Assembly: GCA_050945915.1 (NCBI GenBank)
Contig: JBMNTV010000002.1
Span: 4,599 to 68,598, forward strand
DNA from: Christensenellales bacterium
GTDB taxonomy: Bacteria > Bacillota > Clostridia > Christensenellales > CALWSW01
Length of the DNA: 64,000 nucleotides
Reading direction: 5' to 3'
Shown in pieces: positions 4,535 through 24,865 of the stretch. The notes beneath the pieces were generated by a model. The model worked only from the letters and a program-made list of their open reading frames with translations. It was not told where the DNA came from and ran no database searches. Each line of letters opens with the position of its first letter. Within the stretch, counting starts at the first letter, position 1. The position numbers were made by a program, and so were the translations under genes.

Positions 4535-4632
4535 ACTTTTTGCCGGATTCCCCCTGCCCTTTGCCTCCGCCCTGTTGCGTTGCCGGATATGCGTCCATCC
4601 GGCTGGAAACACTAGGGCCGGAGGTGTTTTTT

Positions 4633-7847: not shown

Positions 7848-7921
7848 TACCATGCCTAATAAAAAGCAAACCCGAAAAAACGCCGCGGGATCCGCCACTG
7901 ATGTGATTTTTGGGCACAAAA

Positions 7922-7960
7922 AACCGCCTTGCTCTGCGCTTGGCGGTTATTTGAGTTTTT
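7922..7960 (+). terminator. Weak terminator-like hairpin after ligD
   Basis: aaccgcc ... ggcggtt stem with a 13-nt loop, followed by atttgagtttttt. The loop is long, so confidence is low. Confidence 0.3.
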
Positions 7961-8090
7961 TGCCATCTGTGTTTCGGCCTTTGCTTCCTTCCTGTTCGTC
8001 CCCTGTCCCCATGCAAGCACCCGCCGCAGACAGGTGCCGGCCGCAACCGCCCGCTTTCGAACCGTTTCCCAACCCCGATTATGCCGATGC

Positions 8091-8121
8091 AAGAAAAAAC
8101 GGCCACTCTGGAGTGACCGTT
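8091..8121 (-). terminator. Rho-independent terminator following the displaced tRNA-Thr 3' fragment
   Basis: On the minus strand: acggucac / uccaga / guggccgu hairpin followed by a U-run (plus-strand A-run 8093-8098). It sits immediately 3' of the partial tRNA copy. Confidence 0.55.
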
Positions 8122-8167
8122 TGGAGCTGATGAGCAGATTCGAACTGCCTACCTCCTCATTACCAAT
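8122..8167 (-). repeat. 46-bp direct repeat (att junction): orphan copy of tRNA-Thr positions 31-76
   Basis: tggagctgatgagcagattcgaactgcctacctcctcattaccaat is identical base-for-base to 24790-24835. Flanking bases differ on both sides. Confidence 0.9.
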
Positions 8168-8272
8168 AATGATGCTTTTCAACTCCACGATTTCCCCTTT
8201 ATCTGGATAAGCCAAGTATAACTTGTGCTCGGCTTGCGAGTCCAGATATTGGGGCGTAACTTATGCGGTTTT

Positions 8273-9211
8273 CTACCGGTCGGTCAGAAACGCGGTGAGC
8301 TTGCCGGTCTGCCCCTTGTGGTGGGACAGGCGTAAATGGGTGTAGATGTCCAGCGTGATCTGGATGCTGGAATGGCCCGCCCACACCTGGGCTGTTTTGA
8401 CATCAACCCCTGCTTCGTACAGCAGGGTGATATAGGTGTGCCGCAATTGCTTGGACGTAATCTTTGTGCCCAAGCCTTTTATTGCGTTCTTCCAATACGT
8501 TCGGAAGGATGTGAGTGACATAAGCCCTCCGCGGTGGTTCGGAAAAACATAGTCCGAAGTGCGGATGCAATACAGTTTGTTGAGCAAGCTGTGCAAATTC
8601 GGTTCCGCGATCGGTACGGTGCGTATCCCCGCTTCGCTTTTGGGAGGTTTGATCATACCTTGGTTGGTTACATAAGAGACGGATTTTGTTACGTGGATCT
8701 TGCGGGACTCAAAACAAATATCGTCCCAAGTGAGGGCAAGCCCCTCACCGCGTCGCAAACCGGTGTAGAGGTAGAGTAACATCAACGGGTCAGCCAGGGC
8801 ATCAATTTGACGAATTGCTTCATCGCCAAGAATGATAGGCTTATTCTTTGAGATTCTGGGCAACCGGATTTTTAATGCCGGGTTGCGGTCTAAAAACTCA
8901 TTGATGTACCCAAACTCCAATATCTGTGAAAGTCGTCCAACATAGTACTGAATGGACGAGGGCGCACACCCTTCTGCAATCAGTTGAGAAACAAACCAAT
9001 CGATGTGGTACGGCTTAATAAGCCGCACGTCACGCTCTCCGAAGCGCGGGATGATGTGACGGTTTATTTCGTACATGTAATTTTGAAGGGTTTTTTGCGT
9101 TATGTAACATCCTTGAACTGTTTTCCACAATTCAGTCAGCATTGAGAGCGTAACGATTTCGCCGTTGGTCAATGCTGTTTCGACCTTTTTAAGTATCGCT
9201 GTATCCATCAT
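8273..9211 (-). CDS. Tyrosine-type site-specific recombinase/integrase
   Basis: Carries the catalytic signature YTGLRRGE ... LRHTYITLL ... AGHSSIQITLDIYTH (R, H-x-x-R, H, Y). ATG 9211 is preferred over the TTG at 9223. Confidence 0.9.
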   Translation of the reverse strand: MMDTAILKKVETALTNGEIVTLSMLTELWKTVQGCYITQKTLQNYMYEINRHIIPRFGERDVRLIKPYHIDWFVSQLIAEGCAPSSIQYYVGRLSQILEFGYINEFLDRNPALKIRLPRISKNKPIILGDEAIRQIDALADPLMLLYLYTGLRRGEGLALTWDDICFESRKIHVTKSVSYVTNQGMIKPPKSEAGIRTVPIAEPNLHSLLNKLYCIRTSDYVFPNHRGGLMSLTSFRTYWKNAIKGLGTKITSKQLRHTYITLLYEAGVDVKTAQVWAGHSSIQITLDIYTHLRLSHHKGQTGKLTAFLTDR

Positions 9212-9425
9212 ATATATCCCCAATCTGTTAAATTGTTGTCAGAGTAATATGACGGATTGTTCCGATTTACACAGTTAGTTGTGCATATTGTCCGTTGAGT
9301 GGGTGACGCACTGCTTTGCTGTTTTGACTCGATATGTCGGACTCACGACGACGTTAAGCGCTTTCGCCGAGTTTGGTAACGCTGTTTGCTTTCAGCAATA
9401 TTCTGTTTTCAAGGTGCTTATCAAG

Positions 9426-9448
9426 GTACATGTATAAGATACATGTAC
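9426..9448. repeat. Perfect inverted repeat gtacatgtat-aag-atacatgtac upstream of the integrase
   Basis: 10-bp arms with a 3-bp spacer, seen directly in the sequence about 215 bp upstream of the int start. Function unknown; it could be an operator. Confidence 0.6.
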
Positions 9449-9617
9449 AGTAACAAGCTGTCAAATTTTTAGTCAAAAACGTGTTTTTGTATGATTTTCG
9501 CAATATTTTTCAAATTTTTACTTGTCTAATATCAAAATCTGTTACCAAGAGGTATACCCTGGCGGATAAAATGTGGCTGGATAGCGTGAAACAAAGAAAC
9601 TGATAAATCAGCCTGGC

Positions 9618-9786
9618 AACTTCGTCCCAAGTTGGGACGAAGTTGCAGAAGATGTCTCGGGCAAAAAGCTGAAAAATCAACTTGGGACACTTCGTCCCAA
9701 GTTGGGACGAAGTCGCGGAGCGGTTGATCGAACGAATAAGCTAATAAATTGGTCTGGGTCACTTCGGCCCAACTTGGGCCGAAGTG
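9618..9786. promoter_or_regulatory. Array of three palindromic parS-like sites
   Basis: The sites are 9618-9644 aacttcgtcccaaGttgggacgaagtt, 9689-9713 acttcgtcccaaGttgggacgaagt, and the variant 9760-9786 cacttcggcccaaCttgggccgaagtg. An extra half-site aacttgggac lies at 9679-9688. The same core recurs inside parB. Confidence 0.6.
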
Positions 9787-10017
9787 TTAGGCCGATTGTC
9801 TTGACGGAAATTCGTGCAACTACATTTTAAATTTTCTAGAAATATGAATCCACAGAAGTACGTTGACAGGAAATACGCGGCAATCGATATATTGGAGAAT
9901 TTACTTATTCGTATTATAAGATGTTATCACCGCTATGCTGTTGGCAAGCTTGGAGAAAGGAAACAACGATGACTGATTAACATTGAGAAATTTGGCAACA
10001 TTGAAGCGTTCTGACAG

Positions 10018-10420
10018 TTGGTCCAAAAGTACACAGGCTATCAGAATAGCGACGATCGTCCGCTTTCCGAACTTGCCGCGCATATCCTTATCACCGCCCT
10101 GTTACAGACAATGCCAGCTTCTACCCTGCGAGGCTTGGAGCGGTTCATTTCCGACTCCAACAAGCTATCAGCTTGTTCATGGCATACTCAAACAATATTT
10201 CAAAGAGATTGCTGAGAACGTCATTAAAGTTGAGGACATCATCAATGTTATCGATAACCGCCGTAAGCTGCACAAGGTAACAAAGTCCAAATCCGTGTTC
10301 CCTACAGACGATAGCCTGCTGAAAATGCTGTATCTGGCTATGGTGGACATCACGAGAAAATGGACCGGGCTTGGAGCGTCATCCACGCACAAATGCCGTT
10401 TCTTCGCCGAGCGCATGCCT
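10018..10420 (+). pseudogene. IS256-family (mutator-type) transposase remnant, multiply frameshifted
   Basis: Frame fragments read ...AAHILITALL...LRGLERFI...LSACSWH and ...NRRKLHKVTKSKSVFPTDDSLLKMLYLAMVDITRKWTG / AWSVIHAQ / FFAERMPG. They resemble the C-terminal half of IS256-type transposases but are split over three frames. Confidence 0.5.
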
Positions 10421-10737
10421 GGTTAACACCACAGGCGACGGACGTCAATGGTAAACGAGCGGCTGCGCCGCCCTTGACATCCGCCCCCCCGCTGGGCGTT
10501 GTGTTGCTAACAAGGCGGCAACGAACCAGTCCGCTGCCGCCTTTCAAAATTTTGCTCCGTTTTGCACCCTCGTTTGCAGTTTACACAGAATACGGGATAC
10601 ACCCTAACGACACAGGGCAAGGTCCAACCTTGCCCCTAATTACTAAATGAGATTATTTTGATTTTGAAGAATACACAAAATTTCCAACGCGACGCACAGT
10701 ATATGGGATTGACCCATTTCTGGTCTAGCGAATGATA

Positions 10738-11445
10738 TTAAAACGTGTATTTCGAATAAAGTTCTTCGAAAATAGGTAGATCATCAACAATCTGGAAAGT
10801 GTTGCTTGCACTGACCAAATCAGCTCCTGCAGCAAAAGCACCCATCAAAATTGCCGTCGTCCAGTATTTGCCGTTGCCGGAAGCCTTGAGCCCCATGCCA
10901 AGCTCGTCCGCCTTCTTGCGCAACATCTGAATTCTATGCATCGGTGCGCCTACCTTATTATAGTCATAAGCCTTAATGTGCGTCGCGCCGCCCTCTTTAA
11001 TCGCATCACACATGCGGAACATGTCATCCAAAGAATCGTTACACATAGTGAGAACTTTGATCTCGCCGTCGAAGCTTCCTTTTACAGCACGGACATACTC
11101 TGTAATGAGATCCCATCTGCGCATGGTCCATGCGGACATGTCGGGGTATACATCGATGGAACGGCAGCCTCCTTTGTACGCGATTTCCGCCTGCTTAGCG
11201 GCGGCGGCAGCGGGCATAAGGCCATCTTTAAAGTTGATCGGTGTAGACATAATAACGCCCGAACCATCCAGAAGGTCATGCACAAAACCGTGCCAATGAT
11301 GGCTGGGGGAGAAGATTACACGAAATCCGTACTCAATGCCCTTCGTAACTTGGTCGGTAATTATTTTTTCATCATTGTCCCAAATGACATGTTCCAAGCG
11401 GCTTGCCAGCCATTTTTTGGTTACCAATTCCCCGTTGAGATACAT
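10738..11445 (-). CDS. DeoC-like aldolase-family protein (divergent paralog of the 2-589 gene)
   Basis: 235 aa. Shares GG..(I/V)K, K.SG.G.(Y/F)WT(T/S)AI and the C-terminal I(V/I)DDLPIFEE motif with the aldolase at 2-589. GGAGG RBS precedes ATG 11445. Confidence 0.7.
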   Translation of the reverse strand: MYLNGELVTKKWLASRLEHVIWDNDEKIITDQVTKGIEYGFRVIFSPSHHWHGFVHDLLDGSGVIMSTPINFKDGLMPAAAAAKQAEIAYKGGCRSIDVYPDMSAWTMRRWDLITEYVRAVKGSFDGEIKVLTMCNDSLDDMFRMCDAIKEGGATHIKAYDYNKVGAPMHRIQMLRKKADELGMGLKASGNGKYWTTAILMGAFAAGADLVSASNTFQIVDDLPIFEELYSKYTF

Positions 11446-11697
11446 AATGTTTCCTCCTTCTATATTTAGAAAAGCTGATATGATAGAGTTAAAGATGCTA
11501 TTATGCTCACCATCTCTATGTGCAAGACTATATCACAACAAACCTGTATAGTCAATACTGCAATACGTGTTATACAACTAAGTTTTGACATAGTGCCGTG
11601 CAAAGATAAGAGTGTTGAGATGGTGAAATAAGAAATATGCAAATAAACCCATCGATGTGGCGAGACGGACCATCGCAGACGAGTATGGAGAAGAAAT

Positions 11698-11808
11698 GGT
11701 CTGCCCAAGTCTTTGTACCTGATTGGTAAGCTTTCGCAGTATCCGTTCTCCCGAGGACTGCCCGGCTCAATATAACCCGGCTTAATAATAAATAGTAAGT
11801 TTGCTCAC
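11698..11808 (-). pseudogene. Short remnant of an rve (DDE integrase-core) transposase gene, copy A
   Basis: The minus-strand frame reads YIEPGSPRENGYCES, the P..NG..E segment that carries the catalytic Glu of rve transposases. It is joined directly to ...KDLGRP. Nucleotide-level repeat of 15388-15790. Confidence 0.5.
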
Positions 11809-12005
11809 CTTTTCTGCCTGGCTTTTTCCGTTGCCTCATTGACTTTTTGTTTACGGGCTTAAGGATTCGGCTGGGTGCTCTGGATTTTCCGGGGCGCCCG
11901 GCTTGTATTTTGTATGACGTCCCGCACAACCTTTCACAAGCTCCATGCGCGTTGACCGATGTTGTCATACATGATAAGATTAATAAACATAAGATTTGAA
12001 GGAGC

Positions 12006-12743
12006 ATGCAAATGGCGACAAGAAACCGTTCGATCAGCACAGCAATGGAAGTTTCCCTGCGGGAACGCATTCAAAACGGCGAGTGGGCAGTGGATTGCGC
12101 CGTGCCTTCGGAAAACGAGCTCGCTCGGCAATATTCCGTCAGCCGCATGACTGCCCGCTCGGTGCTCACCCAGCTGGTCGGGGCCGGGTTGTTATACCGC
12201 ATTCCGGGCAAGGGCACATTTGTGGCTCAGGAGCCCACCCTCGTGCTGCGGGATAGGGCGTTTTGCTCCATCCGGGAGCAGCTTACCAAACAGGGGCACA
12301 ACGTTAGTACCCAGTTGCTCAGTATGGGAGAAATCGCTGCTACCGAATCTGTGGCAAAGAAGCTAGATCTGCATGAGAGTGCGCCCGTGTTGCAAGTGCA
12401 TAAACTACGTTTTCTGGAAAGCAAGCCTATCAGCCTACACACAAGCTTCTTTCCTCTTTCTCGTTGCCCCGGGCTCCAGCAATATGATTTTGTGGAGCGA
12501 GACAGCTGTGTTGTTATCGAGGAGCATTACGGTATCAAGCGCGCCCGGGTCAAGGAAACGCTGGAATCCACACTTGCCACGTTCCAGGAAGCGTCCAAGC
12601 TAGGCATTCTGCCTGGCCACCCGTTGCTTCTGCTGGATAGCGTGGTCTATTCAACCGAAAAGTATCCCTATGAATATGCCAAAGTAGTGTATCGGGGAGA
12701 TATGATCAAGATTTCCTTTGATTATGAGGACGACATTCGCTAG
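12006..12743 (+). CDS. GntR/HutC-family transcriptional regulator (winged HTH + UTRA effector domain)
   Basis: Contains PSENELARQYSVSRMTARSVLTQLVGAGLLYRIPGKGTFV, the GntR HTH signature. The C-terminal approx 150 aa are UTRA-like. The alternative ATG at 12012 is better spaced from AAGGAG (11999-12004). Confidence 0.88.
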   Translation: MQMATRNRSISTAMEVSLRERIQNGEWAVDCAVPSENELARQYSVSRMTARSVLTQLVGAGLLYRIPGKGTFVAQEPTLVLRDRAFCSIREQLTKQGHNVSTQLLSMGEIAATESVAKKLDLHESAPVLQVHKLRFLESKPISLHTSFFPLSRCPGLQQYDFVERDSCVVIEEHYGIKRARVKETLESTLATFQEASKLGILPGHPLLLLDSVVYSTEKYPYEYAKVVYRGDMIKISFDYEDDIR

Positions 12744-13070
12744 GTGTATAACAAAATAGTCCGGTAGATTTAATTATACGTACCGTAGATCGTGAAACGG
12801 CATCAGATGGACATATCCCGCCATCGGGGATAAGGCCATCTTTTGCGTTCTCAGGATGCATGATAACGCCCCTATAAAAGCGGCACAAAAACGCGATGGA
12901 TAAGTTATAGTGAGAACATAAATGACGTGTGCAAATCCCCGGCCGAAAGCCATGAGATGCGGTCGCACTCCAGGCAAACGGGAATTCTGGAGATTGGCAG
13001 AACCGGTACCTCTACCTGATGTAGGGTTACACATAATTTGGAATAGCCTCGCAATTTACTCTACACGCAA

Positions 13071-13105
13071 AGAAGAACGCTTCGGATAACCCGAAGCGTT
13101 CTTCT
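13071..13105. terminator. Strong 15-bp-stem hairpin between convergent gntR-type and flavoenzyme genes
   Basis: agaagaacgcttcgg / ataac / ccgaagcgttcttct, a perfect stem. It lies between stop 12743 (+) and stop 13120 (-). Confidence 0.6.
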
Positions 13106-13119
13106 CATTTTGATTCGTA

Positions 13120-15039
13120 TTATGCGTAATACCCCATGCGGAAGCCCGCCGCGACGTTGGTGCGGATGTTGCCCTGCTCCAGCGCGTCGCCGCAACACAC
13201 GGCGTTAATTCCCTTTTCTTCCAGCGCCTGTTGCAACGCGCCGCCCGCCGGGCGCTGGCCGGTGGCAAGAACGATCAAATCGGCCTTGGCGCGCTGGGCC
13301 ACGCCTTGGGAATCGACGTAGTTAACGCCGTCCGGTTCGATGGAAGAAACCCGTGCGCTCACTTGCAGATTGGAGCCGGATTCTTTCAAAATAGCCAGAT
13401 CGCGTTCACGGTGAGTGGCTTCCTGCCCGGCAGAAAGCACTGGGGCCATTTCGATGATGGTGATGCGGTTGCCATGTTCCAGCAAGTATAGCGCCGCTTC
13501 ACAGCCCACGTTGCCGCCGCCGATCACCACCACATCCTTTGCTTTTGGCGTGGGAACGGTTCCGTCCAGCACATCCCATACCCCGACGGTGTGTTCCACG
13601 CCAGGCAGGGGCGGCGTTGCGGGAACCGCGCCCACAGCCACGATCACCTTGTCCGGCGCCAGTGCGGCGACGGAATCTACCGTGGCTTCTGTGTTCAACA
13701 ACACCTTCACCCCCAGCAGTTCAAACTGCCGTTCGAAGTATTCCGCCGTGGTGTTCAGGATTTCCTTGTCCGGCGGCACGCTGGCAATGTTCATCTGCCC
13801 GCCCAGGAAGCCCTTCTTCTCGATCAGGGTGACTTTGTGGCCGCGTTCCGCAGCGGTTTGGGCGGCCTGCATGCCCGCCACGCCACCGCCGACCACCACG
13901 ATGTTCTTGGGCGCGCGCACGGTGGGCAGGTTGCCTTCGTCATAAACGGCGTCAAACCCGACGTAGGGGTTCAGCGCGCAGCGGATGCCACTTTTTTTGC
14001 CCAGCATAGCGTAGCAGCCTTCCAGGCAGTTGATGCAGCGGCGGATTTCGTTTTCTTTGCCGGTGCGCAGTTTTTCCGGGAAGTACGGGTCACAGATCAA
14101 CTGCCGCCCGACGACGATCAGGTCGGCTTCGTTATTTTCCAGTATTTCTTCGCACATCTCTCCCGTGCGGATTTTACCTACGATGGCAACGGGCTTTTTG
14201 ACCACAGGCTTGATCTTTGCCACAAGGGGCCGCCGTGCGCCGTCCGGGCGATCCTGGGTTTCGGTAGCGCCGAACCAGCGGTCTTTGATGCCGGTGGTCA
14301 CGTTGATCATGTCTACCAGCGGATCGGCCAGTTTTGCATATTCTGCGCCCATGTCAATGTCGATTCCGCCGGGGGCCCAATCCTGCACCGCAAGGCGCAC
14401 GCTCAAAAGAAACCCTTCCCCACAGGCGGCACGGACTGCGGAGAGCACTTCGCCCAGGAAGCGGAAGCGGTTTTCCACATCGCCGCCATATTCGTCTGTG
14501 CGGTGATTGGTCAGCGGAGAAAGGAACTGGTTGACCAGATATCCGTGTCCCGCATGAATTTCCACGCCATCCAGCCCGGCCTGTTGGGCCCGGCGGGCAG
14601 CAGCGACGTACTTCTTCACAAGCTGGTCAATTTCTTCTTTTGTGAGGGCGGCATATCCCTTGCCTGCATCTGGCGCGACGGCCACCGACCCTGGCGAGGA
14701 AACGGACCGGGACCCGGCGTGGTGCAGTTGAGCCAGAATCTTGGTACCATAAGGCTTGACGCTGTCGGCAATAGCGTGCAAGCCGGGGATGTCGGTGTCT
14801 TTGGAAAGATCGAGCTGCACGACGGAGCCCATGCCGTGGGGCTGGTCTACCGAGCCGAACTCCAGAATGATCATACCCACGCCCCCTTCGGCGCGCTTAG
14901 CGTAATATGACCGCAGGGTTTCCGTCACGGTACCGTCCGCGTTGCAAAAAAGCGTGTCCATGGCGGGCATCACCAGTCGGTTTTTCAGCACGGTGCGGCC
15001 CACCCGAATGGGGGAAAACAGGTTTTTGTATTGTGTCAT
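13120..15039 (-). CDS. Old-Yellow-Enzyme-family FMN oxidoreductase fused to an FAD/NAD(P)-binding domain (2,4-dienoyl-CoA-reductase/enoate-reductase-like)
   Basis: 639 aa from MTQYKNLFSPIRVG. N-terminal OYE TIM barrel (VMPAMDT, HAGHGYLVNQFLSP). Cys cluster RRCINCLEGC...IRC. C-terminal VVVGGGVAGM and VVIGGGNVGCE dinucleotide folds. GGAGGA RBS precedes ATG 15039. Confidence 0.88.
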   Translation of the reverse strand: MTQYKNLFSPIRVGRTVLKNRLVMPAMDTLFCNADGTVTETLRSYYAKRAEGGVGMIILEFGSVDQPHGMGSVVQLDLSKDTDIPGLHAIADSVKPYGTKILAQLHHAGSRSVSSPGSVAVAPDAGKGYAALTKEEIDQLVKKYVAAARRAQQAGLDGVEIHAGHGYLVNQFLSPLTNHRTDEYGGDVENRFRFLGEVLSAVRAACGEGFLLSVRLAVQDWAPGGIDIDMGAEYAKLADPLVDMINVTTGIKDRWFGATETQDRPDGARRPLVAKIKPVVKKPVAIVGKIRTGEMCEEILENNEADLIVVGRQLICDPYFPEKLRTGKENEIRRCINCLEGCYAMLGKKSGIRCALNPYVGFDAVYDEGNLPTVRAPKNIVVVGGGVAGMQAAQTAAERGHKVTLIEKKGFLGGQMNIASVPPDKEILNTTAEYFERQFELLGVKVLLNTEATVDSVAALAPDKVIVAVGAVPATPPLPGVEHTVGVWDVLDGTVPTPKAKDVVVIGGGNVGCEAALYLLEHGNRITIIEMAPVLSAGQEATHRERDLAILKESGSNLQVSARVSSIEPDGVNYVDSQGVAQRAKADLIVLATGQRPAGGALQQALEEKGINAVCCGDALEQGNIRTNVAAGFRMGYYA

Positions 15040-15387
15040 GTTGCGTCCTCCGAAAATCTTGAGATGGTCGCCGTCGAGACGGAGAAGACCTTTTACACTA
15101 CCTGTTATATAACCGAAGCTGCAAAAAGTCAACATGTATAGCATGTTGTTGACAAGAACCGGGGATTTTATTCACGCAAAGCAAAATATGCCCCCGATTC
15201 TGCACCATATCTTGAGAAAATCGTCTAAAAAATCAAAAATGACTATTGACATGTTATACAAGCGGTGATATGTTTTCAATAACCATTTCGCTGCTGGTGA
15301 ATCCGGTTTGGGACTGATTGATGCTCCAATGCATACGATCATTCCGGAACATCTTGTGCAATCAGCTGCAAAAACGCCAAAGGAGGT

Positions 15388-15790
15388 GGTCTGCCCCTAG
15401 TCTTTGAACAAGTCGGAGTTAGTAAAGTTTGTGTTGGCAAAACGTTCCTTCTTTGTTTGGTTGCATCTTAACATAGGCCGAGGAGGCGCTCAAGGGCGCG
15501 CCAGCGCGTGTATGCGTTTATGATGAATCGCACCCTCAAACGATAAGTTGTGGTTCACTTCATGAAACCGTAAAAAGTATTTTCTACGATGCCGGAGATT
15601 TCTCGCCCAATCCTGCTACGTGGCCTGATTCGTAATGGTTCTTCCAACGTTGGCAAAAACCTACGCCTTATGGAGATTCCCAAACAGCTCGCCGTTGGAA
15701 AATCCATTCGGCATCCGGCTGCTAAGATTTCGCAGTATCCGTTCCCCCGGGGGCTACTCGGCCCAATATAAATAGTAAGTTCGCTCGCTA
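15388..15790 (-). pseudogene. Longer decayed remnant of the same rve-type transposase, copy B
   Basis: The minus strand reads ELTIYIGPSSPRGNGYCE. After frameshifts and stops it continues ...NGELFGNLHKA*VFANVGRTITNQ... and ...KD*GQTTSFGVFAA, resembling the C-terminal third of integrase-core transposases. Both ends match copy A at the nucleotide level. Confidence 0.5.
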
Positions 15791-16387
15791 ATTCTCCTGC
15801 ATGGCGTGCTTCCGCAATACTATCCTCCTAATTACATGGAAACTAGAACTTGCGAAGTCCTGCTCCTCCCCAGACTGTTTCCTTGTCACTTCCGCTAGCT
15901 CCCTTGCTTTGTTGATTATATCTCAACTGACTCTAGGGGTGGTACAAGGATTGGGGGGGAGGGCAATCTCTTTTGCTAATTGCATACGATGATCGCGTTC
16001 TTTTTGAAATCTTGTCATAATTCTCCCGGTATTCTCCCGTTTTCCGTCTTCGATTTCTGAACGCTTTTCCGCTCCGGCCATCTTAGCAGATCGGCCAAAG
16101 CCCAAACATGTGCCCGTAACGGTATAACATGTACAAAATTAACCTGACTACACATACAGGTCGTGATGAGATTTTGCTTAGTGGAAATTGAAACGGGGCA
16201 TTATTTTTAAGTCAACACTGCGCAAAAAACCCAACTAGTCTTACGCATAGGAAAGCGGGCTGTTCGCACCACATGGTGCTCCTATTCTCTGTGCATTGGA
16301 TACCTTGGGACAGTGTCCGAACAGTTCCTTGTGAAGATAAAGTATCGGAGCGTTCATCCGAAATATAAATAGTGAGAGGTATCTTCA

Positions 16388-17947
16388 ATGGCAAACCAAT
16401 ATGTTGTTGGAATCGATGCAGGTACTACCGGTTGCCGGACAGTCATCTTTGATCTGCAGGGCAACGAGATCGGCTCGGGGTATCGGGAGAACCCGTTGAT
16501 CTATCCGCAAGCCGGATGGGTTGAACTTGGAGTCCAGGATATCATCGACAACTGCTACGCATCGACGCGCGAAGCACTGACGAAGACCGGAATCGACCCC
16601 AAAGAGATTGCGTCGATCAGCTTCACCTATATGCGCCCTGTGGTCTGTCTGCGCGGAGAGGACGGAAGCTGGGTCCGTGATATTCAGATGTGGCAGGATA
16701 TGCGTGCCGCACAGGTGTTCCCCTGGATGACCCAGAGGCTCGCTGAGTTTGGCATGACGCCGGACGACCTGTATGATATCACCGGGTTCCCATATTCGAC
16801 TGTGTGGATGTTGGGCAAAATCTGCTGGATACAGCAGAATGAACCTGATGTTTGGGCGCGCGTCAAGCACATCCACAACCTTCACGGTGTCCTCGTGCAT
16901 GCGTATGGCTGCGAGGAGTGGCTCGAGAACAGCGAGGATCTCGGCTGGTGGCAGCTTAACAACTGCGATGACTTCACTTGGAACGAAAAGCTCTGCAAGG
17001 TCTTTCAGGTCGACCCCTCAATGCTTCCCAAGCATGTGCCCACCGGCACAGTCATAGGCGCCGTTTCGCGTGAGGTCGCCCAGAAGACCGGCTTGGCCGA
17101 GGGCACCCCGCTGGTCGCGGGCCTCGGTGACCAGCAGTGCGCCGCAGTCGGCATGGGCAATATCCGTGAAGGAATGGCCTCGCTCGTACTCGGGACCGCC
17201 GGCGTATTGGTCTGCCAGTCCGAGAAGCCGGTTCGTGACCCGAACCGCAAAGCACACGTTATTGGATCCGCTCTCCATAAATGGGAGATGGAGGGCCATT
17301 CAAGCGCCGCGGCGAGCTCCTTCAAGTGGATCCGCCAGACGTTTGGTCACATGGAGCAGGCCACTTCTGGCCTGACAGGCATCGACGTCAACGACCTGCT
17401 GACCGCGCAGGCGGCGAAGGCGAAGCCGGGAGCTCAGGGTCTGGTTTACATCCCGTGGCTCGCGGGTGCGGCCATGCCCTACTATGACACGAATGCGCGC
17501 GGTGCGTTTATCGGTATGACCTTTGGCCACCGCAAGTGCGAGATCTTGCGTGCCGGCATGGAAGGCGTCTGTTGTGAGATGCGCACTATGCTTGAGGCAA
17601 TCCAAAACGCTGGAGTCGCGCCATCCGAATACATCCGCATCGGTGGTGGCGCAGCTCGCTCGTCGCTGTGGAACCAGATCAGTGCGGACGTCTACGGTGT
17701 GCCGGTTGAGACGGTCAAGACACCCGAGAGCACTGCGCTCGGCGCGGCGATGATGGGCGCCATCGGCGTCGGCATCTTCAAAGACCTTAAGGAGGCGAGC
17801 GAAGCGATGGTCCATGTGACTGGCCGCTGGGAACCCATCCCCCAAAACGTTGAGGTCTACAACGAAATCTACCAGATATTCTTGAATTCTTACACCGCAC
17901 TGAAAGAGCAAGTATTCCCTGCTATCGCGAGGTTCCAGGGAGTCTAA
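16388..17947 (+). CDS. FGGY-family carbohydrate kinase (paralog of 863-2428)
   Basis: 519 aa. Contains VVGIDAGTTGCRTVIFD, GDQQCAAVG and GGGAARS. It aligns along its full length with the kinase at 863-2428. Confidence 0.9.
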   Translation: MANQYVVGIDAGTTGCRTVIFDLQGNEIGSGYRENPLIYPQAGWVELGVQDIIDNCYASTREALTKTGIDPKEIASISFTYMRPVVCLRGEDGSWVRDIQMWQDMRAAQVFPWMTQRLAEFGMTPDDLYDITGFPYSTVWMLGKICWIQQNEPDVWARVKHIHNLHGVLVHAYGCEEWLENSEDLGWWQLNNCDDFTWNEKLCKVFQVDPSMLPKHVPTGTVIGAVSREVAQKTGLAEGTPLVAGLGDQQCAAVGMGNIREGMASLVLGTAGVLVCQSEKPVRDPNRKAHVIGSALHKWEMEGHSSAAASSFKWIRQTFGHMEQATSGLTGIDVNDLLTAQAAKAKPGAQGLVYIPWLAGAAMPYYDTNARGAFIGMTFGHRKCEILRAGMEGVCCEMRTMLEAIQNAGVAPSEYIRIGGGAARSSLWNQISADVYGVPVETVKTPESTALGAAMMGAIGVGIFKDLKEASEAMVHVTGRWEPIPQNVEVYNEIYQIFLNSYTALKEQVFPAIARFQGV

Positions 17948-18235
17948 TGGAATACAAATCAATAAATTAGATACAAGAGCATATAGGGAGGGTCGGTTGC
18001 CAAACCTTTAAGCAACTGACCTTTCCGAAGCTTGTGATTACATACATGAAAGAAAGGACACCTAATAGCTCTAGACTTATTGATAATATGAACTGCAGAT
18101 AAAGGTGTTCTGAATCGTCAATGAGCTACCTTTGTTTTAAGAAGTGTTCAAAAAACTATATATAGCACTGCAAGAGAACATCGAACTGGCTGAATCCAAA
18201 GCCGATTCAGGTTGGTTTATAAGGAGGACATCGTA

Positions 18236-18997
18236 ATGGAAAAGAAACGTTTGGAAGGCGAAGTAGCGGCGGTGACCGGCGCAGCGTCGGGCTTGGACCG
18301 TGGAATCGCAATAGAGTTAGCTAAAAATGGCGCAATCGTTGCCTGCTGCGATATTGATGATCAGGGAAATATGAAAACGGTAGATATGATCAAAGCAGCT
18401 GGCGGGCAAGCATTCCCTGTGAAAATGAATGTAGGTGATTCCGCGTCCGTCGATGCTGCTTTTAAAGAAATATTTGATAAGACCGGTAGGCTCGACATTC
18501 TGGTCAATGGCGCAGCTATCTCAAGAAAGCTGCAACTACCCGAATGTACCGATGAGGAATGGGACCTGGTTATAAGGATTAATCTAACTGGTGCGTTTTA
18601 CACCATTCGTGCAGCATATCCCTATTTCAAGAAAACCGGTGGTGGAAAGATCGTGAATATTTCCTCGACCTCAGGTAAAAGCGGAGGGAGTTGGTCGGGT
18701 GCTCATTATGTCGCGTCCAAGGCTGGGGTGATAGGATTGACAAGGTATTGCGCCGGCTATTTCTGCAAGGATAATATCCGGGCCAATGCCATTTGCCCCG
18801 GTGTCGCAGAGACCCCGCTTACTGCTGATACTACGCCTGCAGTCCTAGATAAAATGCTTCAAAACATTCCAATGTGCAGAATGGCAACGCCGGAAGATGT
18901 AGCGGGCGCTGTTTTATTCCTGGTCTCTGATGAAAGCAAATACATTACGGGCATAACAGTAGATGTCACCGGCGGCAGATATATATATAATAACTGA
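18236..18997 (+). CDS. Short-chain dehydrogenase/reductase (SDR)
   Basis: Has the TGAASGLDRGIA Rossmann motif, NGAA and the catalytic YVASKAG (Y-x3-K). AAGGAGG RBS precedes ATG 18236, so the track start at 18212 was rejected. Confidence 0.9.
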   Translation: MEKKRLEGEVAAVTGAASGLDRGIAIELAKNGAIVACCDIDDQGNMKTVDMIKAAGGQAFPVKMNVGDSASVDAAFKEIFDKTGRLDILVNGAAISRKLQLPECTDEEWDLVIRINLTGAFYTIRAAYPYFKKTGGGKIVNISSTSGKSGGSWSGAHYVASKAGVIGLTRYCAGYFCKDNIRANAICPGVAETPLTADTTPAVLDKMLQNIPMCRMATPEDVAGAVLFLVSDESKYITGITVDVTGGRYIYNN

Positions 18998-19111
18998 CAA
19001 TTGTTCAGAGTTCCCATGGAATGAGATACTGCTCCAGCCAATACGAATGAAAACAAAAAACAGGGCTGGGTGGGTCTGATGTGTCCCCACAAAGCTGGAC
19101 AAATGTTTGGA

Positions 19112-19335
19112 TTAAGCAACGGAAAGGGCTTGTTGCCTGTGAATGGCAGGCGGAGGCCCTTTAGCTTTGCTACGGAGGTTGTTGTAATAATCGAGATCGT
19201 CAATTGACTTCCGCTTGAAATGCTCCATTGAGTGCATGGATGACGCTCCAGTCCTGCCGCCGCCCGGTCCATTTTCACGTGATGCAGTTTTGAATTTCGG
19301 TCTGGGGGAATGCCGCCTCGATTGGTCGAAAACCC
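19112..19335 (-). pseudogene. IS3-family (IS150-like) transposase C-terminal remnant
   Basis: The minus-strand frame ends ...SMEHFKRKSIDDLDYYNNLRSKAKGPPPAIHRQQALSVA*. This resembles the conserved ...SMEHFK...YI.YYNN.R.K.KLKG.SP..YR... tail of IS3-family OrfB. It directly abuts the truncated ATPase gene. Confidence 0.5.
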
Positions 19336-19337
19336 GC

Positions 19338-19676
19338 TCAGATTGTCTGTTCAGGCGATGAAAATATCCTCAACCCCTTTGATTCCGGGGGCTCGTGTGA
19401 AAAGCAATTCTCACCGTCGCTGATCCCGGCCACAAACAAGCTCCGACCGCGTGGACAATCGGCAAACACTTCCCAGGGGACGGCTCCTTTTGCGATGTTG
19501 CCAATGCTTTTTTCGGCGGGTATGTCCACGCCGAAGTGCTTTGAAAGCGACGGGTATCGCCAATCGCAGGGCAGACAGGCGACGGCCTTGCCTTCCTGAG
19601 TCAACGTTGCCGCAAGGTTGGAGATCACCGTCGATTTGCCCGCCTTGGAACAGCCGGTGACAGCGATTATTGCCAT
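19338..19676 (-). pseudogene. Truncated MinD/ParA/CpaE-like P-loop ATPase fragment
   Basis: 112 aa, MAIIAVTGCSKAGKSTVISNLAATL, with a deviant Walker A. Homologs of this ATPase class are much longer. The ORF ends where the IS3-like remnant begins. Confidence 0.5.
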
Positions 19677-20485
19677 TCGATTTCACCGCCTTCCGGTAGT
19701 TCTTCGGGTTCGTCCTGCACCGTGTCGGCGAGGAACTTCTCCATTGCGGCGGTTTCCGCGTCCAGAATGGCTTGTTCCAACACGGGCAATTCCGCCGTGT
19801 TGAACTCCGTGAGCATTTCCAGGGCCGCAGCGTCGCGGCCGATCAACGCAACGTGGATGGTGGCCGTTGACTGGAGACGCACAAGCGTCGTCGCCTGGCG
19901 ATGTGTGGCGACCACCGTCACCGCAGCGGCGATTGTTGCGTCGGACGATTCCGCGTCCGTGGTGTCCTGCGCTTTTGCGTTTACCACGGACACGACCTCC
20001 ATGCAGCTTAGTTCCGGGGGCTGCATAATCAGCATGTCCCCGTCGCCGGGCTGGGCGGCGTAGATGCGGATCACGTCCCCGGTGGCCAGCTTGCCGGCAA
20101 CTCCTGCGGCAAGGCTGGGCACAGTGACAGAGATATTCATGCGATCCGCCCGGGTGATGATCGGGTCGGGGCCGAGCGCATCTGCCGTCGTAAACTTCGC
20201 CGCGGTCAGGTTATCGCTGGGGAGCAGCGGAACCGCAGCGTACAGGCCGATGCAGCTCTCCGGGGCCGTCAGCGTTCCGGTGGGCAGGGCGTATGCGCCG
20301 ATTTCTGCCGTAGTCAGCAGTTCCGGCGTGATCACCGTCCCTACGGGGACGATCTCGCGCACCCGCAGCACGGTTGCGGTTTCGCGGGTTTTGCTGTGCG
20401 CTTCGGGGACCAGCCAAAACGCGATTGCCGCCGCAAGCACCAGGCACGCGACGGCAATGAATATGCGGTTTTTCAGAATTCTCAA
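19667..20485 (-). CDS. cpaB: Flp/Tad pilus assembly protein CpaB/RcpC-like (N-terminal TM + SAF-like domain)
   Basis: 272 aa. Has an N-terminal TM helix (IFIAVACLVLAAAIAFWLV) and the VPVGTVITPELL ... GDVIRIYA pattern typical of CpaB. TTG start lies 6 nt after AGGAGGTGG and overlaps the upstream stop (TTGA). Confidence 0.75.
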   Translation of the reverse strand: MRILKNRIFIAVACLVLAAAIAFWLVPEAHSKTRETATVLRVREIVPVGTVITPELLTTAEIGAYALPTGTLTAPESCIGLYAAVPLLPSDNLTAAKFTTADALGPDPIITRADRMNISVTVPSLAAGVAGKLATGDVIRIYAAQPGDGDMLIMQPPELSCMEVVSVVNAKAQDTTDAESSDATIAAAVTVVATHRQATTLVRLQSTATIHVALIGRDAAALEMLTEFNTAELPVLEQAILDAETAAMEKFLADTVQDEPEELPEGGEIEWQ

Positions 20486-22026
20486 TCCGTTCCACCTCCT
20501 GTGTTGTCAAAAAGCGCGGCGCAGAAATTGTCGCGCTCGTGGGATTGTGCAAAAGGGTCGGCCAGAAAGGGCAGAGCGACTACCGTCTGGCCTTTTGCAA
20601 TGCGCCGCAGGGCCTGCTGGCTTTCCGGGGACAACCGGGCCAGCGCGATGGACATGCGCAGGCCATTTCCCTGGAACATCCGCAAAACGCTCTCGCAAGC
20701 GATCCAGCGCGTGCGTCCAGCGTCCGCGACAAATACCCGCACCGCCGCCCTGGTCAACTCGTCCAGCTTGGCCTGCTGCTGGGTGGGTAGCACTGCGCCA
20801 TCGTTCTGGCGCACGATTGCGCCTATGTCGGCGATGACGTAATCATAGCCGCCGCGCATGACTTCCGCGATGGTTTCGCCGCCGTAAAAAACATCCACCC
20901 CGGCGTAGCTGTACGGCGTGTCCAGCGCGGGGCGGGGTGGAAGATAGCGGAGATCCGCTTCCCCCAGCAGTGCCGTGCGCAGGCCGTTATCCGCCAGCCA
21001 TGCGGCGATTGCCGCCGCTGTCCAGGTACATCCGCCCCCAGACATCGTCTGGAATACGGCCACCGTCTGGCAGCTGCTTGGCTTTGGCGGTTTGTATTTC
21101 TGAGGGGCAGGTTCGGCCTTGCCGCGCCCGTTCGACCGCCCGAATCCCTTCCGGGGTAAGCCCGATTCTTCCGGCTGGGGCTTGTCCGCAACGGATGCCT
21201 TCGGCGGCGCTTCGGGCGGCACCTCCGGGACGACTTTCAGCGGCATTCCCACAGGCGGCTCCGGTTCCGCAGCGGGTGCAGGGGCCTTTTTCGGCTTCCG
21301 GGGCGCGCTGGATTTTTTCGCGGGCTTTTTGCCCTGGGTCGGCGGTTCTTCCGGGGCTTCCGGTTCGGGCTGGTTTCCCAACTCAGGCAGGGCTTCCGGC
21401 CCGGGCGACGCTGGTTCGTTCGGGGTTGACGGAAGCACCAGATTTTCTGGTTCCGGTTGTGGTTCCGGCTCCTGCGCCGCCGCCGATTCCATCGGGCTTT
21501 CCGGCTCTGGCAAGGGGGATGGTTCTTCGGCTACAAAGGCAGAGGGCTGCACATCTTCCGGCGCTTCGGTTGACGGCTCGGCAGGGCCGATGCCCGGCGA
21601 GTCGATCACAGATACTTCGACACCACTGGTGTCGAAGTCGCAAGCCGGTTGTTCGGACGGCTCCACCGCCGCAAGCGCATCCAGCAATTCGTCCACCAAA
21701 GCGCGACTGTCGGTGACCAGCGCGGCCACCAGGGAATCCCGGATCAGCTTTTTCACACCGTCATCGGCTGCATCTGATTTCGAGCCGATCACGATCACCG
21801 GCATGGGTTTACGTTTTTGCACTTCGCGGAAAAATCTGCGCCGCCCGAAGTTGTCGGCCACGCTCATGTGCAGGATCAGGCAATCGGCGGCGCTTGCCGC
21901 CAGCATGTCCAACAGCGCGCCGGGGTCGGGAACATCCTCCCCGCAAAGGCGCACGCCGTGCCCAGTGAGCGCCGTCCGGATCGCAGCCGGAACCAGCGCC
22001 GTGAGGACGGCGGGATACTCGGTCAT
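20482..22026 (-). CDS. TadZ/CpaE-like protein: receiver-like N-domain, approx 200-aa Pro/Glu-rich linker, degenerate P-loop ATPase-like C-domain
   Basis: 514 aa with a GGAGGA RBS. The C-domain VAVFQTMSGGGCTWTAAAIAAWLADNG sits where MinD/ParA proteins have KGGxGKT. The middle region is EPEPQPEPE/PKKAPAP-rich. Confidence 0.6.
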   Translation of the reverse strand: MTEYPAVLTALVPAAIRTALTGHGVRLCGEDVPDPGALLDMLAASAADCLILHMSVADNFGRRRFFREVQKRKPMPVIVIGSKSDAADDGVKKLIRDSLVAALVTDSRALVDELLDALAAVEPSEQPACDFDTSGVEVSVIDSPGIGPAEPSTEAPEDVQPSAFVAEEPSPLPEPESPMESAAAQEPEPQPEPENLVLPSTPNEPASPGPEALPELGNQPEPEAPEEPPTQGKKPAKKSSAPRKPKKAPAPAAEPEPPVGMPLKVVPEVPPEAPPKASVADKPQPEESGLPRKGFGRSNGRGKAEPAPQKYKPPKPSSCQTVAVFQTMSGGGCTWTAAAIAAWLADNGLRTALLGEADLRYLPPRPALDTPYSYAGVDVFYGGETIAEVMRGGYDYVIADIGAIVRQNDGAVLPTQQQAKLDELTRAAVRVFVADAGRTRWIACESVLRMFQGNGLRMSIALARLSPESQQALRRIAKGQTVVALPFLADPFAQSHERDNFCAALFDNTGGGTD

Positions 22027-22271
22027 TTTATTCCTCCTCTCGCAAACGGCTTTTTGCCGCAGTTTGGAAATTTACCGGCTGAAAAAAAGACTGGCCGCAG
22101 AAGGAGCGTTGTGCTTCTTTCCGGGCCAGGGTATTACGTACTAAGCTTAGCTTATATTTCTTTCAGCTGGTTATCTTTTAAGAGAAACGATAGGGTAGCA
22201 GAGAGATGTATACTTGTCAAATTACTTGCCAAAACCGCGTTTTGCATGATTTTTGGGCTTTTTGCTAATTT

Positions 22272-22583
22272 TCACTCGTCCTCATCTTCGATCATTTCGT
22301 TCATTTCATAGCCTGTTTCTTGCAGCCTTTGCGGTACAGGCCAGACAATGCGGCTCAAGTCGCGTCCAACTTCAAGCAAAAAGGACGGCTCTTTGCCTTC
22401 GGATACGTCCTTTCGAACAGCTTCGAACGAAATCGCGCCTTCGCGCAGGGTGTACAGGAGGATGCTTTTGAAAATATCGGGCGGCATTTCGCTCCAGTTG
22501 TCCGGCATATACTTGGCGATCGGACTCAATTCGATGGTGAGTCGGTTGTTCGGGATGTCGATCACGGTTTTGATTTCGGCCAT
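22272..22583 (-). CDS. Hypothetical small protein with acidic C-terminus (EMNEMIEDEDE)
   Basis: 103 aa. AAGGAG RBS precedes the ATG, which starts 12 nt after the parB stop. No family recognised. Confidence 0.65.
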   Translation of the reverse strand: MAEIKTVIDIPNNRLTIELSPIAKYMPDNWSEMPPDIFKSILLYTLREGAISFEAVRKDVSEGKEPSFLLEVGRDLSRIVWPVPQRLQETGYEMNEMIEDEDE

Positions 22584-22595
22584 AGTCGGCTCCTT

Positions 22596-23756: not shown

Positions 23757-23815
23757 ATTGGTTTCCACCTCTTACTTATATATTTGCCCACATTGACAAT
23801 GCCAACAAAGATGCA

Positions 23816-24642: not shown

Positions 24643-24789
24643 TTGAAGATCTCCTTGTTTGTAAACGAGACACAACTTATGCCCAATGACTATGGCCCCT
24701 AAACCGGGGATAAGAAAGGCCCTATCGTAACTGCAGTTACAATAGGGCTGTATCCGTGTATGACGTGAAAATCGATCATACAACAACTG

Positions 24790-24835
24790 TGGAGCTGATG
24801 AGCAGATTCGAACTGCCTACCTCCTCATTACCAAT
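24790..24835 (-). repeat. 46-bp direct repeat (att junction) forming the 3' part of the intact tRNA-Thr
   Basis: Identical to 8122-8167. Confidence 0.9.
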
Positions 24836-24865
24836 GAGGTGCTCTACCGACTGAGCTACATCAGC
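24790..24865 (-). tRNA. tRNA-Thr (anticodon GGU), CCA encoded
   Basis: The reverse complement is gctgatgtagctcagtcggtagagcacctcattGGTaatgaggaggtaggcagttcgaatctgctcatcagctcca. It folds as a 76-nt cloverleaf with a 7-bp acceptor stem, a TTCGAAT T-loop and the anticodon loop ttGGTaa. Confidence 0.93.

Follow-up and report, generated by a model that had tools for sequence, protein, structure and literature searches.

The cluster considered here occupies positions 10738 to 18997 of a 64,000-nucleotide stretch of the 72-kb contig JBMNTV010000002.1 (contig positions 4,599 to 68,598) from a Christensenellales bacterium of the gut-type Clostridia (GenBank assembly GCA_050945915.1); "the window" below means that whole stretch, and positions are counted from its first letter. 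Five genes make up the cluster, encoding a class I aldolase of the deoxyribose-phosphate aldolase (DERA) superfamily, a GntR/HutC-family regulator, a flavoenzyme with an old yellow enzyme (OYE) domain, an FGGY carbohydrate kinase, and a short-chain dehydrogenase/reductase (SDR). An earlier note on this DNA had described five open reading frames (ORFs) arranged as two divergent pairs. All five lie where, and on the strands on which, it had placed them, with the aldolase (reverse) diverging from the regulator (forward) and the flavoenzyme (reverse) from the kinase (forward):

10738 to 11445, reverse strand: DERA-superfamily class I aldolase, 235 amino acids, Schiff-base motif HIKAYDYN
12006 to 12743, forward strand: GntR/HutC-family regulator, with a GntR winged helix-turn-helix domain (PF00392, 2e-16) and a UTRA domain (PF07702, 2e-31)
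13120 to 15039, reverse strand: OYE-domain/4Fe-4S/FAD-NAD(P)H flavoenzyme, a predicted ene-reductase of FadH/enoate-reductase architecture, 639 amino acids
16388 to 17947, forward strand: FGGY carbohydrate kinase (FGGY_N, PF00370, 1e-44; FGGY_C, PF02782, 8e-36)
18236 to 18997, forward strand: classical SDR (adh_short, PF00106, 7e-51), in an ORF that opens with TTG at 18212

In NCBI records the aldolase is labeled "hypothetical protein," and the other cluster proteins carry family-level names only. None of the cluster proteins reached an NCBIfam equivalog cut-off, and solved structures were distant (searches of NCBIfam, Pfam, and the PDB).

The aldolase scored 50.7 bits against the deoC model TIGR00126, below the cut-off of 117.3, and gave no match to Pfam DeoC (PF01791) at an E value of 0.01 or less; it matched DERAs in the PDB at an E value of 4e-12. 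Its AlphaFold2 (AF2) model (predicted local distance difference test score of 93.1) is a TIM barrel for which at least the top 40 PDB matches are all DERAs, with template modeling (TM) scores of 0.78 to 0.84, and superposition on DERA structures gave a TM score of ~0.83 at ~22% identity. D98, K130, K158, and K187 are in register with the catalytic Asp, Lys, Schiff-base Lys, and Lys of DERA and are invariant across 14 family members. In contrast, the DERA loops K-T-S-T-G, K-A-S-G-G-I/V-R, and G-T/A-S-S-G are replaced by KAYDYNK, KASGNGKYW, and SASN, and these are the loops that follow the Schiff-base Lys and those that bind phosphate in DERA. Conserved additions are an N-terminal M-x-L-N-G-E and a C-terminal DDLPxFEELYSKY. 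The contrast between THIKAYDYN and DFVKSSTG pointed out in the earlier note is real, the comparator being a second aldolase in the window, at 14 to 589 (referred to here as DeoC2).

Enzymes of this kind are rare. The subfamily comprises 16 clusters among 5.8 billion proteins, and a profile search of 1.84 billion proteins returned six subfamily representatives at E values of 1e-30 or less, after which scores were those of ordinary DERAs. Scans located seven aldolase loci in GTDB species genomes and eight in JGI metagenomes; the GTDB species-genome scan found no family member in the species representatives of Clostridium scindens, Faecalicatena, Dorea, or Blautia, and no plasmid-borne copies were found. 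Three intermediate sequences (P0050, P0052, and P0053) and DeoC2 share the N-terminal GTGxFW and C-terminal DxLPxFE signatures of the cluster aldolase and retain the canonical FVK(S/T)STG. The wider GTGxFW/DxLPxFE clade holds 54 clusters, including a few from Actinobacteria.

The flavoenzyme starts at 15039 (MTQYKNLF) rather than at 15144; the shorter form is the recorded one, and its alignment with homologues covers the full length. It has an Oxidored_FMN domain (PF00724, 2e-74) and a Pyr_redox_2 domain (1e-32), and the features that define its class are all present: the OYE FMN domain, a four-Cys cluster motif (CINCLEGC...C, 335 to 355), and two dinucleotide-binding folds (GGGVAG at 384 and GGGNVG at 507). 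QLHHAG at 104 and HAGHGY at 162 supply a His-x-x-His...Tyr set that we take, from what is known of YqjM-type OYEs, to activate the substrate and donate a proton. The best PDB matches were 2-naphthoyl-CoA reductase and FadH. With its three-module architecture and cofactor motifs, the protein resembles the FadH/2-enoate reductase/BaiCD/BilR class, but its scores against the BaiCD, BilR-long, and mycofactocin OYE_2 models (450, 438, and 428 bits) are far below the respective equivalog cut-offs (793, 750, and 825 bits), and it sits in a sugar-kinase/aldolase cluster rather than in a CoA-thioester, bile-acid, or tetrapyrrole context. It does not belong to a named equivalog (BaiCD, bilirubin reductase, mycofactocin OYE, or NamA), and its subfamily relatives bear generic names only.

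The kinase carries a phosphate loop (DAGTTG at 10) and the catalytic G-D of the family (GDQQCA at 247). It scored 293.1 bits against XylB, whose cut-off is 380.25, and fell further below the cut-offs of GntK, GlpK, LsrK, AraB, FucK, and RhaB; LsrK was its top PDB match, followed by GlpK. For the SDR, the most probable start is the ATG at 18236, which gives a 253-residue protein of homologue-like length; the 261-residue version is not on record. Its cofactor-binding and Ser-Tyr-Lys elements are complete (TGAASG at 22, NGAA at 99, SSTSG at 151, and YVASK at 166). Since its score against FabG, 250 bits, is below the cut-off of 296, it is not a FabG equivalog, and it reached no other equivalog cut-off. 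The regulator has both domains of the HutC subfamily and likewise reached no equivalog cut-off. With full-length ORFs and intact catalytic motifs in all four, the enzymes of the cluster look active.

Co-regulation of the five genes had been put forward in the earlier note as something to be checked, and a shared candidate operator/promoter element, TGTTATACA(A), points in that direction. The decamer TGTTATACAA, allowing at most one mismatch, has four matches in the 64-kb window against 0.98 expected, and all four (at 11568, 12744, 15103, and 15252) fall in intergenic regions of the cluster. The TGT-N3-ACA within the candidate operator is in keeping with the GT-N-AC logic of GntR/HutC operators. 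The elements in and around the cluster are as follows:

11527 to 11577, reverse strand: aldolase promoter-like site, TTGACT-17-TATAGT, abutting a TGTTATACAA candidate operator at 11568 to 11577
15103 to 15112, forward strand: operator-like site TGTTATATAA, 64 bp upstream of the flavoenzyme start
15246 to 15274, forward strand: putative promoter toward the kinase and SDR, TTGACA-17-TATGTT, overlapping a TGTTATACAA candidate operator at 15252 to 15261
13071 to 13105, no strand assigned: terminator-like hairpin between the convergent regulator and flavoenzyme genes, with a 15-bp stem that includes 8 GC pairs
15275 to 16387, no strand assigned: ORF-free spacer or leader of 1.1 kb between the promoter and the kinase

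The element at 15246 to 15274 is the best promoter-like element of the region. A composite form, TTGACATGTTATACA(A)G, also occurs upstream of the aldolase or the SDR operon at five other loci that carry an aldolase of this family or its wider clade (L014, L017, L018, L028, and L039), and further candidate sites stand before each transcription unit of L001 and at L004, L005, and L013. At six or more of the other loci the candidate operator coincides in part with a conserved putative promoter. Taken with this recurrence elsewhere, the sites suggest that the five genes are probably co-regulated.

The set of genes is also conserved beyond the window. We compared ~14 nonredundant loci that contain a member of the aldolase family. 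An SDR gene adjoins the aldolase gene at 13 of the ~14, a GntR/UTRA regulator is present at 12, an FGGY kinase at 10 or more, and the OYE/Fe-S flavoenzyme at 8. The gene set that had been supposed to be co-conserved thus recurs in ~14 independent loci, also where the aldolases are deeply diverged. Two arrangements could be distinguished. Type A loci (L005, L015, L017, and L028) have the order SDR-FGGY-aldolase-GntR. Type B loci (L001, L006, and L019 to L024) begin with an OYE gene, then SDR-orf79-aldolase, then GntR with or without a Cof phosphatase, and continue with a DUF7973 membrane protein, FGGY, a split transketolase, a transaldolase-like protein, a class II aldolase, and a PHP phosphatase. 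The orf79 product, conserved in type B, had no family match and has no counterpart in the window. Cultured carriers of type B are Anaerobium acetethylicum GluBS11 and "Eubacterium sp. am_0171." More distant loci preserve the association: L036, whose aldolase is 40% identical to that of the window, has a single operon SDR-FGGY-aldolase-HAD-OYE-MFS-FeADH-Cof-FGGY, in which MFS denotes a major facilitator superfamily transporter and FeADH an iron-containing alcohol dehydrogenase (Fe-ADH), and at L038, with an aldolase 33% identical, the gene immediately upstream of the aldolase gene encodes an OYE that is 53% identical to the window flavoenzyme. The flavoenzyme, which the earlier note could not fit into any standard sugar pathway, is a real and not an accidental member of the cluster, since it adjoins the aldolase even at 33 to 40% aldolase identity.

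Recurring partners at the other loci are Fe-ADH, HAD phosphatases, and a transporter (either the DUF7973 membrane protein or an MFS protein). Fe-ADH co-occurs at L018, L019, L036, and L039 and on the chromosome of the window. Neither a nucleoside phosphorylase nor a phosphopentomutase was found at any compared locus. Glycoside hydrolases lie near some loci (GH31 at L019; GH2, GH43, and GH35 at L023) and give no clue to the substrate, because they are not conserved. Flavoproteins with FMN_bind or FAD_binding_2 domains near the aldolase at L004 and L005 were considered as substitutes for the OYE and are not relied on, since such proteins are numerous in those genomes and one of them has its own two-component system.

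A second set of related genes lies in the window outside the cluster:

14 to 3703, forward strand: chromosomal partner module, comprising DeoC2 (14 to 589, its 5' end cut by the window), a second FGGY kinase, FGGY2 (863 to 2428), and Fe-ADH (2552 to 3703)

This module is 4.5 kb away from the island that carries the cluster. An arrangement of a LysR regulator gene set against DeoC-FGGY-FeADH is found in the window and at L033, L034, L035, and L039. DeoC2 scored 135.6 bits against deoC, above the cut-off of 117.3; besides sharing the clade signatures with the cluster aldolase, it carries an Arg where the first Lys would stand (ETRFIIE). Identity between FGGY2 and the cluster kinase is 48%. At L039, a contig from a related Christensenellales, orthologues of DeoC2, FGGY2, and Fe-ADH (91 to 95% identical to those of the window) stand immediately ahead of GntR-FGGY_b-SDR-DeoC_b, which diverges from an OYE gene. 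This block is inserted between Fe-ADH and Amidase_6, which are adjacent in the window. The regulator, flavoenzyme, and SDR of the window cluster are 83%, 79%, and 74% identical to the chromosomal counterparts at L039, and DeoC_b, which looks like a canonical member of the wider clade, shares 59% identity with DeoC2 and 25% with the cluster aldolase. L033 has DeoC2-FGGY2-FeADH only.

We infer that the KAYDYN aldolase takes the place of a DeoC_b-type enzyme within one and the same pathway and that the full system would, as at L036, have an SDR, an OYE, and Fe-ADH together with two kinases and one or two DERA-like aldolases. Because L039 carries an orthologous module contiguous with DeoC-FGGY-FeADH, the island probably supplies the part that is missing from the chromosome and completes a split pathway together with DeoC2-FGGY2-FeADH. 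As a separate observation, aerobic Actinobacteria have DeoC_b-type aldolases that share 67 to 68% identity with the Christensenellales enzyme (P0319, P0322, and P0324, from Pseudonocardia sp. C8, Arthrobacter sp. AFG20, and Propionibacteriaceae), which implies cross-phylum transfer of at least that gene.

That the genes at 10738 to 18997 are cargo of an island, as had been suspected from the letters alone, is borne out by an empty site and by attachment repeats. Strain L033 is 99.9% identical to the window over 1 to 8167 and 24790 to 29096 and has nothing in between. A perfect 46-bp direct repeat (8122 to 8167 and 24790 to 24835) corresponds to the 3' part of tRNA-Thr(GGT), and an integrase gene adjoins one end:

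8122 to 8167, no strand assigned: attL, the 46-bp repeat and left end of the island, where homology to L033 stops
8273 to 9223, reverse strand: tyrosine integrase adjoining attL, with Phage_integrase and SAM-like domains (phrog_1 integrase, E value of 3e-60)
24790 to 24865, reverse strand: tRNA-Thr(GGT), whose 3' 46 bp (24790 to 24835) form attR, the right end of the island

With an integrase at one end, repeats of the tRNA 3' end, and an empty site in a relative, the element has every hallmark of a tRNA-targeting island, and the cluster genes are cargo of this tRNA-Thr-integrated island. From the L033 empty site, the repeats, and the integrase, we place the island at ~8168 to 24789 (16.6 kb). 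Its GC content is 0.52, compared with 0.57 to 0.59 in the flanks.

The cluster itself is of mixed descent. Its aldolase is nearest to those of type B loci (83 to 91% identity; 88 to 91% to L019, L013, and L020), while the kinase (80 to 83%, the values for L005, L017, and L028), SDR (72 to 77%), and regulator (48 to 57%) are nearest to those of type A loci, and the GC content of its genes ranges from 0.48 to 0.60. Judged by these affinities, the window copy is a rearranged recombinant mosaic without a dedicated transporter. The gap between the flavoenzyme and kinase genes (15040 to 16387, 1.35 kb) holds no credible ORF; tblastn and blastx detected no remnant in it of the DUF7973 transporter or of another cluster gene, and it matched no Rfam family (a chance miRNA match only) and nothing in the plasmid database. 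The spacer at 15275 to 16387 is likely a rearrangement scar. A segment of ~100 bp is duplicated between 11724 to 11815 and 15720 to 15795 (82 to 85% identity, on the same strand as the downstream genes) with no Rfam match and no coding similarity, and this duplication is probably a relic of the rearrangement from which the mosaic arose.

We propose that the five genes are one GntR/HutC-repressed catabolic module for a sugar-like compound, acquired on the 16.6-kb tRNA-Thr island, and we hold this view with roughly even confidence. In such a module, the regulator would bind the TGTTATACA(A) sites at the aldolase, flavoenzyme, and kinase-SDR promoters and would be released by a pathway intermediate. 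The OYE/Fe-S/FAD enzyme might then saturate, at the expense of NAD(P)H, an activated C=C bond (in an enone, enal, or enoate), and the SDR might interconvert a hydroxyl and a carbonyl, yielding a deoxy-sugar-like intermediate in which a methylene adjoins a carbonyl and a hydroxyl is in the beta position. Since DERA-type enzymes require such a methylene alpha to the carbonyl, a role of the OYE and SDR in making a deoxy intermediate is plausible. The FGGY kinase, going by its family, would phosphorylate a terminal primary hydroxyl. The DERA-fold aldolase, whose active-site residues are in place, would form a Schiff base through Lys158 and perform a retro-aldol cleavage, giving a phosphorylated aldehyde (glyceraldehyde-3-phosphate or a different short aldose phosphate) together with a small carbonyl compound that bears no phosphate. 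The latter could be reduced by Fe-ADH, provided here, as synteny suggests, by the chromosomal DeoC2-FGGY2-FeADH module. The transketolase, transaldolase-like protein, class II aldolase, and PHP phosphatase of type B loci hint that the phosphorylated product may not be a triose but, e.g., a tetrose phosphate.

Several observations weigh against this proposal. The window copy is without the transporter, phosphatases, and Fe-ADH seen at other loci, and 1.1 kb of ORF-free DNA separates the promoter from the kinase. The cluster sits in a decayed backbone and may be poorly expressed or nonfunctional. One of the four candidate operators (12744) lies in a convergent 3' region, an unexpected place for an operator. 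L005, L017, and L018 have no OYE, and at L026 an aldolase 89% identical to that of the window has unrelated neighbors, with a nucleobase permease on one side and a phosphofructokinase on the other. The steps from double-bond reduction to carbonyl reduction follow chemical logic, and the order and roles of the OYE and SDR are uncertain, since reduction of an enone alone leaves no beta-hydroxyl, which DERA-type cleavage requires.

The module belongs among kinase-aldolase catabolic clusters and does not constitute a new category. The earlier note could not assign a substrate. Searches of NCBIfam, Pfam, the PDB, and the literature gave no closely related protein whose substrate has been defined. 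That search returned no relevant description of the gene combination, of DUF7973, of an FGGY deoxyribokinase, or of an erythritol/FGGY/transketolase combination; the genome paper on Anaerobium acetethylicum does not discuss the locus, and a sulfoglycolysis paper mentions FGGY only in another context. To our knowledge, FGGY together with a DERA-type aldolase, an OYE, and an SDR is explained by none of the sulfoquinovose, erythritol, apiose, ascorbate, and AI-2 routes, nor by the unsaturated uronate/2-keto-3-deoxygluconate, 1,5-anhydrofructose, and C-glycoside routes. The idea that the module represents an undescribed anaerobic route is one we put forward tentatively, at somewhat less than even confidence: in such a route an ene-reductase would be obligatory in a sugar-type pathway, the FGGY kinase would have a new specificity, the aldolase would define a new DERA-superfamily subfamily (the GTGxFW clade with its KAYDYN offshoot), the substrate would be one not known to be used by gut or digester Clostridia, and the pathway would be split between chromosome and island.

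Among known systems, DERA itself (DeoC, EC 4.1.2.4; TIGR00126, PF01791) shares the TIM barrel and the register of the catalytic residues with the cluster aldolase, which differs in its low identity, subthreshold scores, and replaced loops (KAYDYNK for KTSTG, KASGNGKYW for KASGGIR, SASN for GTSSG) and has an SDR gene rather than deo genes as its usual neighbor. The LsrK/LsrF pair of AI-2 processing likewise joins an FGGY kinase to a DeoC-superfamily class I enzyme (LsrF, of the DeoC/LacD family) acting on a phosphorylated small keto-sugar. However, the cluster kinase scored 226 bits against LsrK (cut-off, 528), the aldolase is DERA-like rather than LsrF-like, and the cluster is without LsrG, the LsrACDB transporter, and the SorC-type LsrR; the lsr system, in turn, has no OYE or SDR counterpart. 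In the FucK-FucA-FucO routes for L-fucose and L-rhamnose and in the 5-deoxyribose dihydroxyacetone phosphate shunt, a kinase and an aldol cleavage yield a triose phosphate and a small aldehyde, which an Fe-ADH reduces. The logic of FGGY-type kinase, aldolase, and Fe-ADH is alike, but they depend on an isomerase and on class II metal aldolases, whereas here the aldolase is class I and DERA-type, there is no isomerase, and an ene-reductase and SDR are conserved. The fin neighborhood of Clostridium scindens, flavin-induced and a candidate for anaerobic riboflavin degradation, also combines a kinase and a class I aldolase with alcohol and aldehyde dehydrogenases and has a sporadic distribution in Lachnospiraceae suggestive of horizontal gene transfer (bioRxiv 10.64898/2026.02.13.705874). 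It is set apart by its described gene families, with a RibF kinase and no OYE, FGGY, or GntR reported. The lsr, fucose/rhamnose and 5-deoxyribose, and fin systems are the closest analogies in logic, and none of them shares the gene families as a set.

Four other explanations deserve attention. The cluster could be a nonfunctional relic of recombination, a mosaic of two types in a decaying island with no transporter, a broken operon, and no benefit to the host. The mixed origin (an aldolase like those of L019, L013, and L020; a kinase, SDR, and regulator nearest to those of L017, L028, and L039), the spread in gene GC content, the 1.35-kb gap, the missing DUF7973/MFS transporter, HAD phosphatases, and Fe-ADH, and the decay of the backbone, with its Mutator/IS256-like tail, split ParA, and truncated ParA/MinD-like gene, all fit this account. 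We nonetheless think it unlikely, as the five ORFs are full length compared with homologues and keep their catalytic motifs, operator- and promoter-like elements are kept before each transcription unit, Fe-ADH with a second kinase and a second aldolase is encoded on the chromosome 4.5 kb away, and compact four-gene versions without a transporter exist elsewhere (L017 and L028). Alternatively, the genes could serve ordinary catabolism of deoxyribose or deoxynucleosides, with a divergent true DERA, an FGGY deoxyribose kinase, and Fe-ADH reducing acetaldehyde. The DERA fold with all catalytic residues, DeoC2 passing the deoC cut-off beside an FGGY kinase and Fe-ADH, and the close aldolase homologue beside a nucleobase permease at L026 are what such a pathway predicts. 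We judge it quite improbable given the low deoC score of the island aldolase (50.7 against 117.3) and its lack of a Pfam DeoC match, the replaced Schiff-base and phosphate loops (KAYDYNK, SGNGKYW, and SASN), a conserved ene-reductase and SDR that would have no role there, and the absence of nucleoside phosphorylase and phosphopentomutase at every compared locus. The known deoxyribokinase, DeoK, is moreover a ribokinase/PfkB enzyme, and our literature search found nothing linking deoxyribokinase to FGGY.

Only a small chance is left for cleavage of a polyol side chain from a conjugate in the manner of fin, with the kinase acting on the end of a ribityl or alditol chain, a dehydrogenase making the carbonyl, the class I aldolase releasing triose phosphate, and the flavoenzyme reducing an unsaturated ring. 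An ene-reductase would suit a conjugated heterocycle, and the FGGY family has polyol kinases among its members, e.g., those for glycerol and erythritol. The union of a RibF kinase, a class I aldolase, and an alcohol dehydrogenase in the riboflavin-induced fin neighborhood is a precedent, but the fin genes differ (RibF, aldehyde dehydrogenase, and glycine-reductase homologues), and the paper names no FGGY, OYE, or GntR (bioRxiv 10.64898/2026.02.13.705874). The aldolase family was also not found in the C. scindens, Faecalicatena, Dorea, and Blautia species representatives. Detoxification or salvage of sugar-dehydration products, e.g., 3-deoxyglucosone or 3,4-dideoxyglucosone-3-ene, we rate as very improbable. 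Here the OYE would saturate the enone, the SDR would produce 3-deoxyfructose, and the kinase would make the 6-phosphate; the aldolase would then yield hydroxyacetone and glyceraldehyde-3-phosphate, and Fe-ADH would form propanediol. On chemical reasoning alone, this scheme gives a role to every conserved enzyme, including Fe-ADH, and matches DERA chemistry (an alpha methylene and a beta-hydroxyl), and an HAD_2 phosphatase and an ARMT1-like "damage-control" phosphatase are present at some loci. However, a literature search for it gave nothing relevant, and the additional type B enzymes (transketolase, transaldolase-like protein, class II aldolase, and PHP phosphatase) suggest a product other than a triose.

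If the proposal of a single repressed catabolic module is correct, it offers a defined and culturable entry to a carbon-source pathway of gut and digester Clostridia, as Anaerobium acetethylicum DSM 29698 and "Eubacterium sp. am_0171" carry the module in culture. It would also add a substrate specificity to the DERA family, which is important in biocatalysis, and another to the FGGY kinases, and it would place an OYE/Fe-S ene-reductase within a sugar-phosphate aldolase pathway for the first time. A tRNA-integrated island would, moreover, be seen to deliver the missing half of a chromosomal pathway, with an exact empty-site control at hand. We regard the cluster as a lead for enzyme discovery with cultured hosts, and one that overturns no specialist belief.

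The rest of the island shows signs of decay. A ParA-like gene is split into 24376 to 24786 and 23816 to 24445, and a 112-residue ParA/MinD-like N-terminal fragment abuts the SDR gene. Other ORFs between 19338 and 24786 encode a CpaB/RcpC-like protein, a ParB-like protein (22596 to 23768), and a proline-rich protein of 514 residues with no family match. Between the integrase and the cargo, the C-terminal part of the ORF at 9983 to 10426 (…VFPTDDSLLKMLYLAMVDITRKWTG) weakly matches the last 50 positions of a Mutator/IS256 transposase model (E value of 0.043), and this ORF is probably a transposase remnant. A palindromic repeat with the core TCGTCCCAAGTTGGGACGA occurs five times, at 9600 to 9790 and 23113 to 23201, with three copies beside the integrase gene and two within the ParB-like gene; these palindromes may be parS-like or origin-type sites of the island.

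Some related loci bear on mobility elsewhere. The type B cluster of L006 (10015 to 19834) lies beside conjugation genes (TraG/VirD4-like, VirB4-like, PrgI, TrbL, and CHAP/lysozyme), and the module therefore also travels on conjugative elements. At L011/L012 (10001 to 10971), a 173-residue aldolase fragment (64% identity over 45% of the length) is fused or adjacent to a truncated integrase, with a type I-C CRISPR-Cas locus alongside, and was left behind by a separate integration event. Directly to the left of the island in the window, at 4174 to 7847, are genes for Ku and a full-length LigD (phosphoesterase, ligase, and primase-polymerase), the bacterial nonhomologous end-joining pair, here in a metagenome-assembled genome of anaerobic Clostridia.

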